A stretch of DNA of 63,907 bases, the filler included, from Thermoplasmatota archaeon (GTDB taxonomy: Archaea > Thermoplasmatota > E2 > JACPAO01 > JAHFTW01), in NCBI GenBank assembly GCA_041623215.1. It is 10 parts of 10 records of this genome, joined end to end, with 100 filler letters (N's around TTAATTAATTAA, not from the genome) between each part and the next. Parts side by side here need not be neighbours in the genome. Positions count along the whole stretch, not along the records: positions 20,069 to 26,510 come from JBFJXH010000100.1; 9 more parts are not named here. One strand, 5' to 3'. The translations under genes and the position numbers were made by a program. Below, piece after piece: positions 20,441-25,158 of the stretch. Under the pieces are notes generated by a model that had not been told where the DNA came from, did not search any database, and saw only the letters and a program-made list of their open reading frames with translations. Position 1 is the stretch's first letter, and the number at the start of each line of letters is the position of its first letter.

Positions 20441-21088
20441 ATGGAGGTGCGCGACCTCGGCCGGATGGACTATGGCGAGTGCTTGCAGCTCCAGCGTCAG
20501 CTTCGCGACCAACGGCAACGCGGCGAGGGCAACGATGTGATTCTCGTCGTCGAACACCCGCCGGTTGCGACGCTTGGCCGGCGCGGCACGCCGGACCAGG
20601 TGTTTGACCCAACCTTACCTACCTACGTCATTGAGCGAGGGGGCGAAGCCACCTTCCACGCCCCGGGGCAACTGGTCGTGTATCCGATTGTGCGGCTCCG
20701 CGAGGGTGACCGTGATGTGCGTGCCTGGGTCCGTCACCTCGAGCTCTTCCTGATCGACGTGCTGGCGGAGTTCGGCATCCCCGCTGAGTCTCGTTCAGAG
20801 ACGCCAGGAGTTTGGACCACCGGGAGCGGCAAGAAAATTGCGAGTATCGGTATTGCCATCCAGCACTGGGTGTCGTTCCATGGGGTTGCGCTCAACGTAG
20901 ACCTCGATCTGTCGGGCTTTGAACGCATTGACCCCTGCGGCCTTGGCGCGGCGGTCATGACGAGCATGGCGGCCGAGGGCAAGTCGCCTGGCTTCCCGCA
21001 AGTCAAGCAACGAGTCTTGGAGCGCGCCGTCGAGCATTTTCAAGCATTTTCCTCTAATCGCACAGAATTGCACGTCAACGATAATTGA
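20441..21088 (+). CDS. lipB: Lipoyl(octanoyl) transferase
   Basis: EHPPVATLGR, RGGEATFHAPGQLVVYPI, KIASIG, FHGVALNV, IDPCG. Confidence 0.95.
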   Translation: MEVRDLGRMDYGECLQLQRQLRDQRQRGEGNDVILVVEHPPVATLGRRGTPDQVFDPTLPTYVIERGGEATFHAPGQLVVYPIVRLREGDRDVRAWVRHLELFLIDVLAEFGIPAESRSETPGVWTTGSGKKIASIGIAIQHWVSFHGVALNVDLDLSGFERIDPCGLGAAVMTSMAAEGKSPGFPQVKQRVLERAVEHFQAFSSNRTELHVNDN

Positions 21089-21220
21089 TGAATATTCTAG
21101 TGACTTTGGTCGGCAAATCGCGCTTGGGCGCATGCCCCTCGGCCAACCGACGTAAAAACGACCTTATTCCAAGCTTTGCGAGCGACGCGGAATAATGCTG
21201 CCCTGAGCGAATCTCGGTCA

Positions 21221-21240
21221 ATTTCCACTGGAAACCGGGG
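21221..21240. promoter_or_regulatory. ORB-like palindrome in recombinase promoter
   Basis: ATTTCCACTGGAAACCGGGG (minus strand GTTTCCAGTGGAAAT), just upstream of TATA-like CTTTAGA. Confidence 0.45.
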
Positions 21241-21275
21241 CCCTTTAGAGGGCGCCTTGGCTGCCAATGCATGGG

Positions 21276-22094
21276 ATGCCTACTCGAGTCGCGCTGTACA
21301 CCCGCGTTTCGACCGAGGACCAGGCGAAGGAAGGTTTCAGCCTGGATGCCCAGCTTGATCGGCTGCGTCTTTACGCCAAGGCCCAAGACTGGAACATAGC
21401 GGGGGAGTTCATCGACGAGGGCCACAGCGGACGCACGGTCAAGCGGCCTGCCTACCAAGCCATGCTTGACGCCATGGAGGACTGGGACACGCTTCTAGTC
21501 CTGAAGATGGACCGAATCCACAGGAATAGTCGCAACTTCATGGCAATGATGGATGCACTAACGCGCGCCGACAAGGGCTTTGCCAGTGTCACGGAGAGCT
21601 TGGATACCTCCACCGCCATGGGGCGCTTCGTCATGGATATCATTCAACGCATAGCCCAACTGGAATCTGAGCAGATTGGCGAGCGCGTCTACCTGGGCAT
21701 GGAACAGAAGGCGAAGACGCGCGGAGGCAGTCTAGGCCGGCCAGCACCCTTTGGCTACCGCTATGGCGACGAACGCCAGCTGGTGATTGATGAAGAAGAG
21801 CGGCCCTGGATTGAGCAAATCTTCCGGCGGTTTCGGGAGGGCCAGGGCAAGCAGGCGATTGCCGACTGGATGAACCAAGAGGGGCCTGCCACGCGCCGGG
21901 GCCGGCACTGGACGGTCTGGAACATTACGCACATCCTGACCAACCCTGTGTATGCGGGGGCGCTCCATTGGCAGGATCAGGTGCAGACTGATATGCATGC
22001 AGCGATCCTGCCCCCCCGGGACTTTGACGCGGTGCAGGAATTGATTCGCGCTACAAGTCCTAAGAGGCGCTTGGTCCGCCTGACGCGGCTGTAA
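21276..22094 (+). CDS. Serine recombinase (resolvase + recombinase domains, no zinc-ribbon domain)
   Basis: YTRVST (catalytic Ser), KMDRIHRN, DTSTAMGRF, APFGY, ILTNPVYAG. Confidence 0.93.
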   Translation: MPTRVALYTRVSTEDQAKEGFSLDAQLDRLRLYAKAQDWNIAGEFIDEGHSGRTVKRPAYQAMLDAMEDWDTLLVLKMDRIHRNSRNFMAMMDALTRADKGFASVTESLDTSTAMGRFVMDIIQRIAQLESEQIGERVYLGMEQKAKTRGGSLGRPAPFGYRYGDERQLVIDEEERPWIEQIFRRFREGQGKQAIADWMNQEGPATRRGRHWTVWNITHILTNPVYAGALHWQDQVQTDMHAAILPPRDFDAVQELIRATSPKRRLVRLTRL

Positions 22095-22114
22095 CAGGAG
22101 TGCACCCCCAATAG

Positions 22115-22148
22115 GCGTTTGATATATGGACTACCGTATGTCAAACGC
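22115..22148. repeat. 34-bp imperfect inverted repeat
   Basis: GCGTTTGATATATGG-ACTA-CCGTATGTCAAACGC; 13/15 arm matches, both mismatches are G:T. Confidence 0.8.
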
Positions 22149-22256
22149 ATTCTAGGCCGGTCGCGGGCGACCTTTATATATGGTGGCCCAGGCCGAGACA
22201 AAATCTGCCCGTATGCGCAAAAAATTGTGTGATTCTGATTAGCGCTGATTTTTCAG

Positions 22257-22589
22257 CTATTGGCGGAATTGCATGAATTCCACCTCGATGCGGCCCAAAA
22301 GGAAGTTTGCCACCAGAAGCAGGATGGTGAATCCCCCAGAAAGGCTGCCGGTGATGGTAGCCACCTGGGCCATCAGGCCGACGAAGCTCCCAGTCTCGGG
22401 CACATAGGCAAGAATCCCGGTGGCTACGAAGACGATGATGCCCATGGAGATGCCAACATGGCAAGCCGTGCGGATGGAGGCCCAAATGCCCAAGCGTCGG
22501 CGCCATCGCGCCACGCCAGGACCCTTGCGAGCCTTGGTCAAATCAAGAATTCGCCGATACCTGTTTTGAAGAAACCAGGGGGTGGCCAT
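22257..22589 (-). CDS. Hypothetical 2-TM membrane protein
   Basis: Basic N-terminus, two hydrophobic helices. Confidence 0.65.
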   Translation of the reverse strand: MATPWFLQNRYRRILDLTKARKGPGVARWRRRLGIWASIRTACHVGISMGIIVFVATGILAYVPETGSFVGLMAQVATITGSLSGGFTILLLVANFLLGRIEVEFMQFRQ

Positions 22590-22905: not shown

Positions 22906-25158
22906 CTATTTGCGCCACAAACGCCGGATGGAAGAGCGCGCTTGGCGCCGCGATTGTTGCAACATCGCATGGTAGTGACAGCGACCCGCCATCGGGCACC
23001 GAATGCACGCGGGTTGATCCTCGTGGCACGCGGTTGTTGCGATTTCTGCCAAGTCCCGCAGATGCGCATTAGCGTCCTTGCCGGCCCGTTCATGGGCTGC
23101 ACGAAGAAGTTCGAGGGTGGCGGCAGGGCTGTGGCCCTCAACAATGCCAAGGCGTGTGGCAACCCGATGAATGGACTGCGTCTCGGCTGCCGTTGGTGGC
23201 TTGGCCGGCGGTATGGGGGTTGGCGCCGGCATGGCCTTCGCCGCGCTTCCTTGGACATTAGGGCTGGATGCCATGGCTGGAGAAGGCGGGGTGGGCGCCG
23301 ATGCAAGCGCCGACGGCCTCAAGGGTTCTTGGGCGCGCTCGATTGGCTCCCTGGCGACAAACGTGACTGTCGGTGGCTCAATGTCGGTCACAGCCGCCTT
23401 CGCCTCGTCCTCCGGGCGCCCACGCGCGTGGTGAGGGCCATCCAGGAAGGAAACGGGCGTTACTTCGGTGGCCGTTGACTCTCGCAGGAGGTCTTCTGCC
23501 GCCCCCCTTGTGTCATCTTCCAAGGCCGCGACCCGCGCGCTGGACGCGGGCACCGACGGGAGCACCGTTAGCATATCCGGTTCGGAGTGTTGGGGGGTAT
23601 TGGGCACCTCGAGTGACGGCTTGGGTGTGTGCTGCTTGGCGGCCCTCTTTGGCACGGCGTTCCCGCCCAACCCTGGTGCCCCCACCACATCCACGGACAT
23701 ACCACCATGGCGGCTCTGACGCGGTCGTACGTCAACGTACACCGGCCTTGTGAGTCCACCCCCACTCACTAGGGCCGTACCCACGGGCAATCGCTGAATT
23801 TCATCCGCAGCATCACTGGTAATGCCCTCAATGCTCGCCGTTACCGCCTTGAGATCGTTTGGATTCGTCAATTTGAGAATAATCTGTGTGTTGCATTGTG
23901 ACAGCACATTTTTGTCTATTTTAGCAGGTCGCTGGCTAATAATGGCCAGCCCCAGGCCAAATTTGCGACCTTCACTTGCGATGGTGCGGATGATGCCGGT
24001 TGACAGTGCGTGGCCAACGCCCCGCTCCGGGCAGAAATTATGTGCTTCCTCGACCACCAATATATGGGGTGGAATATTGGCGAGCTTCCGTTCTTCCCAT
24101 AATAGTTGCGAGATACGGGTGGCGACTACTTCTTGCAGCTCAGGCGGCACCCCCCGCAGGTTGATGATGGTGCACCGGCCCGGCTGGACCAAATCGGCAA
24201 CGGACGTTCCTTTGACGGCAAATAGGCCGGTGGCCAGCAGGGCGTCCAAGGCAGCCACAACATTCCACTTGGCGTTGCTCTTGGCAAGAGACACGGCCTC
24301 ACGGACATCCTCAAGGCCATAGGCCGGCAGTTGCTCTGCTGTTTCTTTCACCGCTTGATACAGTAGCCCGAGCTGGCTGCTGGGTAGCTTGCCGGGTACC
24401 AAATCGGCGATCTCGCGGCCTTCCAAGTTGAGCCCTTCCAGGAGCAAGCGCTTCGCATCGGGGTTGGCAGTGGTATCGACGGCAAACTCCTGCACCTGCG
24501 ACTGAAAGGCCTTGGGCTTGATGGCAAAGCGCGCCATATCCTCGATATCACCTTCACTCAGGTTGGGGCTGCGAAGGCTGCCGTATTCGCCGTGCGGGTC
24601 GAGAATCACGAGCGGCACTTTGGCCTTGAGAAATTCCTCCAGGATTACGCCTACCGTGTAGGACTTGCCGGCACCGGTTTTTGCCAATACGCAGAGGTGC
24701 TTCTGGGCAAGGACATTCATCCCCAGGTTCACATTGAGCTGCCCGCCCTTAATCTTGCCAAGAAACGCGCCATCATGGCCCGCGTCGAGGCCGAGGACCG
24801 CACGGACAAGTCCTGGATCTGCCGCATAGGCGGGCTGACCGGGGGCAAAGGGCGTGCGCGGCAGTTGGACGCGCCCGCGCTCGTCCATCCATCCAATGAC
24901 GGCGACATCGGCCGATAGCTTGTCCGCGCTGGGATGATGGTTTGGTTCTTCTGCGACGTTCAAGGCTTCGTCGAAGCCCATGCTGGCATGACGCCGCACT
25001 TCCTGGACCTGACAAAGTACCCATTGGCCTCCGTGTTCGACTTGGATGTAGGCCAAGCGCGCAAGACTTCCGTCGGAGAGCGCTAGGGTAAATCGGTGGG
25101 CGGTCGCATCCCCGTAAATCGTGCCCACATGGCTGGCATCTACCATCGACTGATGCAT
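22906..25158 (-). CDS. HerA-like ATPase with C-terminal EndoIII-type 4Fe-4S module
   Basis: N-terminal HAS-barrel-like region, AKTGAGKS, VVEEAHNF, EGRKFG, SQRPAK, SQCNTQ; C-terminal C-x6-C-x2-C-x5-C. Confidence 0.9.
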   Translation of the reverse strand: MHQSMVDASHVGTIYGDATAHRFTLALSDGSLARLAYIQVEHGGQWVLCQVQEVRRHASMGFDEALNVAEEPNHHPSADKLSADVAVIGWMDERGRVQLPRTPFAPGQPAYAADPGLVRAVLGLDAGHDGAFLGKIKGGQLNVNLGMNVLAQKHLCVLAKTGAGKSYTVGVILEEFLKAKVPLVILDPHGEYGSLRSPNLSEGDIEDMARFAIKPKAFQSQVQEFAVDTTANPDAKRLLLEGLNLEGREIADLVPGKLPSSQLGLLYQAVKETAEQLPAYGLEDVREAVSLAKSNAKWNVVAALDALLATGLFAVKGTSVADLVQPGRCTIINLRGVPPELQEVVATRISQLLWEERKLANIPPHILVVEEAHNFCPERGVGHALSTGIIRTIASEGRKFGLGLAIISQRPAKIDKNVLSQCNTQIILKLTNPNDLKAVTASIEGITSDAADEIQRLPVGTALVSGGGLTRPVYVDVRPRQSRHGGMSVDVVGAPGLGGNAVPKRAAKQHTPKPSLEVPNTPQHSEPDMLTVLPSVPASSARVAALEDDTRGAAEDLLRESTATEVTPVSFLDGPHHARGRPEDEAKAAVTDIEPPTVTFVAREPIERAQEPLRPSALASAPTPPSPAMASSPNVQGSAAKAMPAPTPIPPAKPPTAAETQSIHRVATRLGIVEGHSPAATLELLRAAHERAGKDANAHLRDLAEIATTACHEDQPACIRCPMAGRCHYHAMLQQSRRQARSSIRRLWRK

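Follow-up and report, generated by a model that had tools for sequence, protein, structure and literature searches.

What is a short serine recombinase, set among housekeeping genes and followed by an inverted repeat, doing in an archaeal chromosome? This question is raised by a locus in a 63,907-nt stretch of DNA (hereafter the window) from a Thermoplasmatota archaeon (assembly GCA_041623215.1), in which the recombinase gene occupies positions 21267..22094 on the + strand and the repeat positions 22115..22148. The window joins ten contigs of a metagenome-assembled genome (MAG; 88% complete, G000 in our numbering) by N spacers (noted at 6625-58063), and gene order across the spacers is artificial; the recombinase locus itself is a single 6442-bp contig at 20069-26510. 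A first-pass annotation had suggested that the host has domesticated a serine recombinase which has its own site and may be engaged in chromosome maintenance, and the distribution, tree, site and XerA exclusion described below support that suggestion. We consider it quite likely that the recombinase and its single-copy site form a dif-like system for chromosome-dimer resolution, derived from a truncated serine integrase and replacing XerA/dif.

A short recombinase with the front half of a serine integrase

The recombinase open reading frame (ORF) encodes 275 aa from its first ATG, or 272 aa from the ATG at 21276, and the ORF, Pfam, profile searches and AlphaFold/Foldseek together describe a catalytic domain, helix E and a recombinase domain. 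Pfam Resolvase covers residues 8-150 (PF00239, E 1e-36) and Recombinase residues 176-261 (PF07508, E 8e-18), with no Pfam domain after the latter in the 275-aa protein. The zinc-ribbon/coiled coil of large serine integrases is not present, the protein ending at 275 aa and containing no CxxC; neither is the small helix-turn-helix (HTH) C-terminus of small serine resolvases (~190 aa), the C-terminus being PF07508. Pfam and profile searches found no tyrosine recombinase catalytic domain in the protein, which also scored far under the NCBIfam cut-offs for CcrA/B/C and XisF. Two motifs, YTRVS (containing Ser15) and DRIHR (residues 82-86), were invariant across 78 homologues, and from the serine recombinase family we infer a catalytic role for Ser15, whose codon lies at 21309..21311 on the + strand. 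These observations uphold the earlier description of intact resolvase and recombinase domains in a protein of ~272 aa without the C-terminal parts of integrases.

Structure prediction gave a similar picture. The AlphaFold model (mean predicted local distance difference test, pLDDT, 81; predicted template-modelling score, pTM, 0.52) found its best Foldseek matches in the front half of serine integrase structures, with root-mean-square deviations of 2-3 A over about 125-135 columns against LI and Bxb1. Comparison with a same-genus orthologue yielded a proportion of nonsynonymous changes (pN) of 0.11 and of synonymous changes (pS) of 0.76, the latter saturated, and on this estimate the gene is under strong purifying selection.

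The inverted repeat has the layout of a serine-recombinase crossover site

The repeat was located where it had been described, with arms at 22115-22129 and 22134-22148 that are 87% complementary around a 4-nt centre, beginning 20 nt past the recombinase stop. Its core reads GG-A-CT-A-CC, and the T/A pair formed by 22120 and 22143, at position 11, is conserved as well. To survey this candidate recombination site more widely we took 58 archaeal loci, of which 8 were duplicates, and scored the remaining 50 at a threshold of at least 15 bits with a matrix trained largely on the surveyed loci, the window copy excluded. The site was present at 46 of the 50 non-duplicate orthologue loci, so the palindrome is indeed kept beside orthologues; among the four others, three had a weak or more remote site and the fourth lay on a cut contig. 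It stood in one orientation in 27 cases and in the opposite one in 19, lay 6-804 nt downstream of the recombinase gene, and in five loci was found just upstream. The predicted crossover dinucleotide, CT at 22131..22132 on the + strand, is asymmetric (CT in 43 of 46 sites, TT in the other three) and would give the site a direction. Base conservation fades near position 12, with position 11 a T in 45/47 and its paired base an A in 46/47, and the arm sequences differ among lineages yet keep their complementarity. A weak signal of A/T-tract periodicity around the sites was not used.

The site also appears to be single. With a matrix that omitted it, the window copy was the top match in the host genome at 28.5 bits, the runner-up (17.6) was not palindromic, and the genome holds one copy. 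When 121 genomes of the class were counted by eye, about 65 had one palindromic match and none had two, most of these genomes being incomplete MAGs. Similarly, no locus among those fetched carried two sites, and no assembly joint or loose end fell at the site among those listed for three metagenome assemblies.

An Xer-type layout of two 11-bp arms around a 6-8-bp spacer was not found in the repeat, whose arms join at a core of 4 bp, the central 2 bp being conserved. Serine recombinases are described as cutting 2 bp apart to give a 2-bp crossover (PMC5357621), and in LI integrase the recombinase domain has a 13-bp footprint with a T11 contact, positions 16-24 being read by the zinc domain (PMC3783163). 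By analogy with the LI footprint, a zinc-less recombinase should therefore read about the length of site that is conserved here. The 2-bp asymmetric centre has the layout of a serine-recombinase crossover, and conservation to about position 12 together with T11 matches the LI footprint.

The recombinase is lineage-wide and broadly vertical in descent

We searched a sample of 301 Thermoplasmatota genomes, related to one another so that counts are not independent, with an orthologue threshold of E <= 1e-45. Orthologues were identified in 116 of them, reaching all members of the window's own family (10/10), of f4 (11/11) and of f8 (36/36), and partly covering f5 (26/36) and f21 (10/24); none passed the threshold in families f11, f29 and f36. 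Homologues of 61-85% identity were 270-345 aa long and, where labelled, mostly from Thermoplasmatota, and orthologues were mostly 270-300 aa, both within a search range of 151-482 aa. In a length-free profile search the short forms ranked first, followed by proteins of 460-495 aa. The genes nearby are housekeeping genes that differ by family: lipB, DUF357, HerA and Hef in the own family; rps8e, SRP19, TrkA, proteasome and FttA in f5; thermosome and Nre in f8. The distribution is therefore lineage-wide. A quick recombinase tree of 35 proteins recovered the own family, f4+f7 and two paralogue clades, and comparison with elongation factor EF-2 from the same 28 genomes showed broad agreement, with many weak inner branches, as expected of largely vertical descent. 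No second PF07508 gene was found in the host genome. The best phage and plasmid matches were about 35% identical, and IMG/VR returned only two, on short contigs in which no viral genes were recognised by eye.

XerA and the serine recombinase rarely share a genome

XerA scored above cut-off in 59 of the 301 genomes, and only six had both XerA and the recombinase. Of the matches in these six, two lay in type I restriction hsdS clusters, three had an N-terminal extension and one was truncated by a contig end. Within the window's own order (38 genomes) the recombinase was found in 29 and XerA in four, all of them in f2, with zero overlap. The two enzymes therefore come close to mutual exclusion in the sample. 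Stretches fetched from the four XerA genomes of the order contained a dif-like 11-6-11 inverted repeat beside xerA in two (L092:2519-2546 and L225:2707-2734, both in f2, a sister family without the serine recombinase), and no shared neighbours were seen that would place f2 xerA and the f1 recombinase in a common gene slot. Families f11 and f29 have a single conserved tyrosine recombinase of ~360 aa that falls under the XerA cut-off, in 20/21 and 41/42 genomes, and this protein is probably their Xer equivalent.

The sole Pfam tyrosine recombinase match in the host genome is an integron integrase (L070:1432-2262, G000:C96), which scores above the TIGR02249 cut-off and sits at a contig end. Such a gene is odd for an archaeal MAG, and misbinning is possible.

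Some lineages have two paralogues and an asymmetric site

In mcrA-positive lineages (mcrA was looked for in four) that carry two tandem paralogues of the recombinase, the site is asymmetric, with arms that are not complementary (4-6 of 13 pairs). A fixed asymmetric pattern was found in 31 of 46 recombinase-bearing genomes, two of which had a second weak match, and in none of 10 Xer-bearing ones. It mostly missed genus g40, where a relaxed pattern gave many chance matches and two candidates were retained post hoc after a check of their context. Two tandem paralogues with an asymmetric site suggest, by analogy with XerC and XerD, that each paralogue may occupy one half-site.

The site lies in the terminus region of closed relatives

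The first-pass annotation had called for the locus to be placed relative to origin and terminus. We took the main cdc6 gene as the origin, a choice for which PMC4153887 gives support in this methanogen order. Of 12 closed methanogen chromosomes, 11 had the site 113-179 degrees from the main cdc6, nine of these eleven sites coming from the fixed pattern and two being picked after it was relaxed. The methanogen site can lie far from the recombinase genes (124-168 kb), and where it does it is nearer to the antipode than the genes are. A symmetric site was likewise at 156 degrees from cdc6 in one closed chromosome.

Strand composition was then sampled over about 21-49% of each of three chromosomes, including about 49% and 25% of the two most off-centre cases, G101 and G212, and in all three the site lies near the skew switch by some of the measures. 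In G101 and G212 the switch in raw GC skew and gene orientation falls close to the site instead of at the antipode. For example, G101 has its site at 0.313, the orientation optimum at 0.32, T skew at 0.35 and G skew at 0.39, and G212 has its site and orientation at 0.38 and G skew at 0.39. In G172, of which 21% was sampled, the site agrees with T and keto skew, and 14 small samples of G350 were uninformative. Taken with the site, the skew switches mark unequal replichores of about 31/69 in G101 and about 38/62 in G212. The terminus region is thus where the site is found in closed relatives; for the window's own family a single genome bears on the matter and argues otherwise, as set out below.

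A model for the system and its alternatives

In the proposed mechanism a recombinase dimer would use its recombinase domains to bind the site of roughly 26 bp, and in a chromosome dimer the two directly repeated sites would be brought together. A double-strand cut across the central CT, subunit rotation and rejoining would then release two monomers. Having neither zinc-ribbon nor coiled coil, the enzyme would accept two identical sites and not an attP x attB pair; LI integrase without its coiled coil is reported to carry out excision on each of the four site pairs tried (PMC3783163), in keeping with an enzyme that works on identical sites. Candidates for biasing or controlling resolution would be the 19-bp boxes of f5/f6, the TATA-like box, the phased degenerate palindromes and the ORB-like box at the promoter, all described below. 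A broader scenario, which we regard as on balance probable, is that a phage-type serine integrase lost its directionality domains and became domesticated early in the history of Thermoplasmatota, giving a third class of chromosome-dimer-resolution machine that stands in for XerA/dif in about 40% of the genomes sampled, occurs in a one-gene/symmetric and a two-paralogue/asymmetric form, and is controlled through lineage-specific accessory boxes without FtsK.

Several observations weigh against this interpretation. As many as 132 of the 301 genomes have neither the recombinase nor XerA above threshold, and several families beyond f11 and f29 lack a clear Xer-like candidate. Two of the methanogen sites were post hoc choices, as noted above, and in G269, also a closed methanogen chromosome, no site was found. 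Skew is not uniformly favourable: T skew is discordant in G212, G skew and orientation do not fit in G172, and the sign of T skew is reversed between G101 and G172. In the own family, the 1.7-Mb MAG G048, the only one of the 38 genomes of the order with cdc6 and site on the same contig, has its site only about 149 kb from the main cdc6, on a contig that gave no replichore skew signal. Arm mismatches read on the gene strand comprise 34 G:T against 12 A:C, a bias also expected of an RNA hairpin. Finally, LI integrase without its zinc domain binds DNA poorly (PMC3783163), and partners may therefore be needed.

These points leave room for other readings, each of which shares part of the evidence. 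A host housekeeping protein might bind the site for some other chromosome job, such as decatenation, terminus anchoring and organising or autoregulation, and resolve few dimers or none; a single-copy site, vertical inheritance and a place at the terminus would fit equally, and the G048 site that is not opposite cdc6, the operator-like boxes near the site and at the gene promoter and the ORB-like box upstream would suit it. We nevertheless think it unlikely, given the invariant catalytic motifs, the conserved asymmetric dinucleotide at the centre and the exclusion of XerA even inside one order. It is quite unlikely that the site is mainly a landing pad or gene-capture platform, at which the recombinase integrates and excises small elements in the manner of an integron or of an integrative mobile element exploiting Xer (IMEX). 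The nearest longer relatives do have the size of phage-type integrases (460-495 aa), and in some loci additional genes lie between gene and site or past the site; however, no fetched locus has two sites, no listed assembly joint falls at the site, capture alone leaves the XerA exclusion and the terminus position unexplained, and use of dif sites by elements is expected as a side effect.

The palindrome might instead be an RNA hairpin, a terminator or stabiliser between convergent genes, and no DNA target at all. Its + strand folds better (z -2.7 vs -1.6), and both the G:T bias and a position 20 nt past the stop would be natural for a terminator. This is very improbable when set against a site that occurs in both orientations, also upstream of the gene and up to 168 kb from it, with fixed bases conserved into the loop and with non-complementary arms in the paired-paralogue lineages; a terminator scan picks a different small stem at 22159-22172. 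The terminator-only reading was accordingly rejected for the family as a whole on orientation, distance from the gene and paired-paralogue arms; the G:T bias remains. There is scarcely any chance that the locus is the remnant of an integrated mobile element, with a truncated integrase and a leftover att site, even though its domain make-up is that of the front half of a large serine integrase. Near-universal presence in whole families, strong purifying selection, housekeeping neighbours, phage and plasmid matches of only about 35% identity and two IMG/VR matches without recognised viral genes all speak against a remnant, which distribution and selection have already largely refuted.

Comparison with known systems

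The proposed dimer-resolution system resembles Xer/dif, including archaeal XerA/dif (PMC2958812), XerS/difSL and XerH/difH (PMC5357621) and XerCD, in having a single inverted-repeat site per chromosome, which in closed relatives lies in the terminus region, and in existing as single-gene and two-paralogue forms. As with XerS and XerH, the recombinase gene often adjoins its own site, and as at the dif of Thermococcales there are flanking repeats around it. Unlike Xer/dif, it would use a serine and not a tyrosine catalytic fold and a 2-bp centre in place of the Xer spacer of 6-11 bp, and one family member has a site that is not opposite cdc6. With the large serine integrases (LI/A118, TP901-1, Bxb1, SPbeta SprA, CcrA/B/C, XisF) the enzyme shares catalytic domain, helix E and recombinase domain, and its site layout fits the recombinase-domain footprint. 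It differs from them in length (275 aa against 450-600), in lacking the zinc-ribbon/coiled coil, in having one self-symmetric site with no attP/attB or attL/attR pair bounding an element, and in being chromosomal and vertically inherited. Small serine resolvases and invertases such as Tn3, gamma-delta and Sin, whose structures were also among the matches to the enzyme, resolve plasmid or transposon multimers. The enzyme is like these in its serine chemistry, in its likely recombination of identical sites and in its possible accessory boxes, and unlike them in being chromosomal and in carrying an integrase-type recombinase domain at its C-terminus instead of a small HTH; no multi-subsite res site for it was seen. 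Serine recombinases make double-strand breaks without a Holliday intermediate, and control must therefore differ from that of FtsK-gated Xer.

Archaeal dif was defined (PMC2958812) by the criteria that are also applied here. A 2022 review says that there is no evidence for serine resolvases in prokaryotic chromosome segregation (PMC8987985), archaeal serine recombinases are described elsewhere as never fully investigated (PMC8371274), and the Xer substitutes listed in PMC8138268 are of tyrosine type only. The main text of PMC4153887 does not mention xer, recombinase or resolvase. In a literature search largely confined to the main texts of freely available papers, we found tyrosine-type enzymes alone described for chromosome dimer resolution and no report of a serine-type one. 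Dimer resolution and plasmid serine-resolvase chemistry are each known; what we did not find described is an integrase-derived enzyme that brings the two together on a chromosome. Since there is now a named enzyme and a predicted 26-bp target, serine-type chromosome resolution is directly testable. In closed Methanomassiliicoccales-type genomes the site would serve to mark the terminus, and a 275-aa recombinase with a short site is a possible compact engineering tool.

Candidate accessory elements around the site

A TATA-like sequence, TTTATATA, lies at 22173..22180 on the + strand, 24 bp past the site, and is a candidate accessory element or promoter. At 8 of the 15 family loci such a box lies no more than 60 bp from the site, five times at exactly +24, and it also accompanies the site in G247, where the recombinase gene is elsewhere. 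Further on, a motif search pointed weakly to a degenerate palindromic box of the CGCnAnnnnTnGCG type at 22216..22229 (no strand assigned) as a putative accessory box; several loci of the family have boxes of this type, placed +47, +57 or +67 relative to the site, and the search reached a log-likelihood of 51 against 18-22 in three shuffles.

The box overlaps the 22210 copy of CGTATG-N2-4-AAA, one of three copies (22135, 22210 and 22860) whose recurrence near the locus had been pointed out in the first-pass annotation. The three copies exist, the one at 22135 being an arm of the site itself. Outside site arms, however, the pattern was found in none of 15 family loci and four further stretches, and a shuffle control overstates it because the pattern was drawn from the same copies. 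It was therefore rejected as a source of further sites.

Upstream of the recombinase gene, at 21222..21240 on the + strand, is an ORB-like sequence, matching the origin recognition box (ORB, the Orc1/Cdc6 box) almost perfectly. It contains the sole exact 12-mer match in the host genome to the ORB core (consensus from PMC4153887), and relatives keep just its 3' part. The box may link expression of the recombinase to the replication cycle. The host cdc6 gene is on a different contig, with its own ORB-like box.

In families f5/f6 (L011, L014, L016, L020, L028, L029, L045, L052 and others) we observed a 19-bp palindrome, TGCTAGA-N5-TCTAGCA, about 130-215 bp from the site on one or both sides and also at the recombinase promoter. 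Its top genome-wide matches are at the recombinase locus, and these boxes are candidate accessory or operator boxes; none was found at the window's locus.

Genomic context and neighbouring proteins

Pfam and profile searches confirmed the expected neighbours on the contig, with lipB on one side of the recombinase and HerA, UPF0147 and a Hef fragment on the other. The lipB gene (20441..21088, + strand) lies upstream and had a tblastn match in 14 of 15 family loci, and the HerA-family ATPase (22906..25158, - strand) lies downstream and is kept in the family, with a match in 11 of 15. The earlier account had overlooked a small convergent ORF at 22257..22589 on the - strand, which encodes a hydrophobic 110-aa protein without a Pfam match and had weak matches in 2 of 15 family loci. 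Its statement that phage, plasmid and transposon genes are absent nearby holds over 6.4 kb here, a span set by the 6442-bp contig, and over longer stretches in relatives. The AT-rich patch that it placed at the repeat reduces to a mild bias, with a GC content of 0.51 against 0.63 for the genome.

Additional recombinase-related proteins adjoin the gene in some relatives. In L012, L019, L023, L027, L055 and L058 there is a ~250-aa protein, usually between gene and site, that has two CxxC motifs joined to a recombinase domain but no catalytic domain. In L042, L047, L051, L054 and L056 a second, diverged serine recombinase of ~250 aa (YIRxS, DRFSR) begins about 100 bp after the main gene, just beyond the site.

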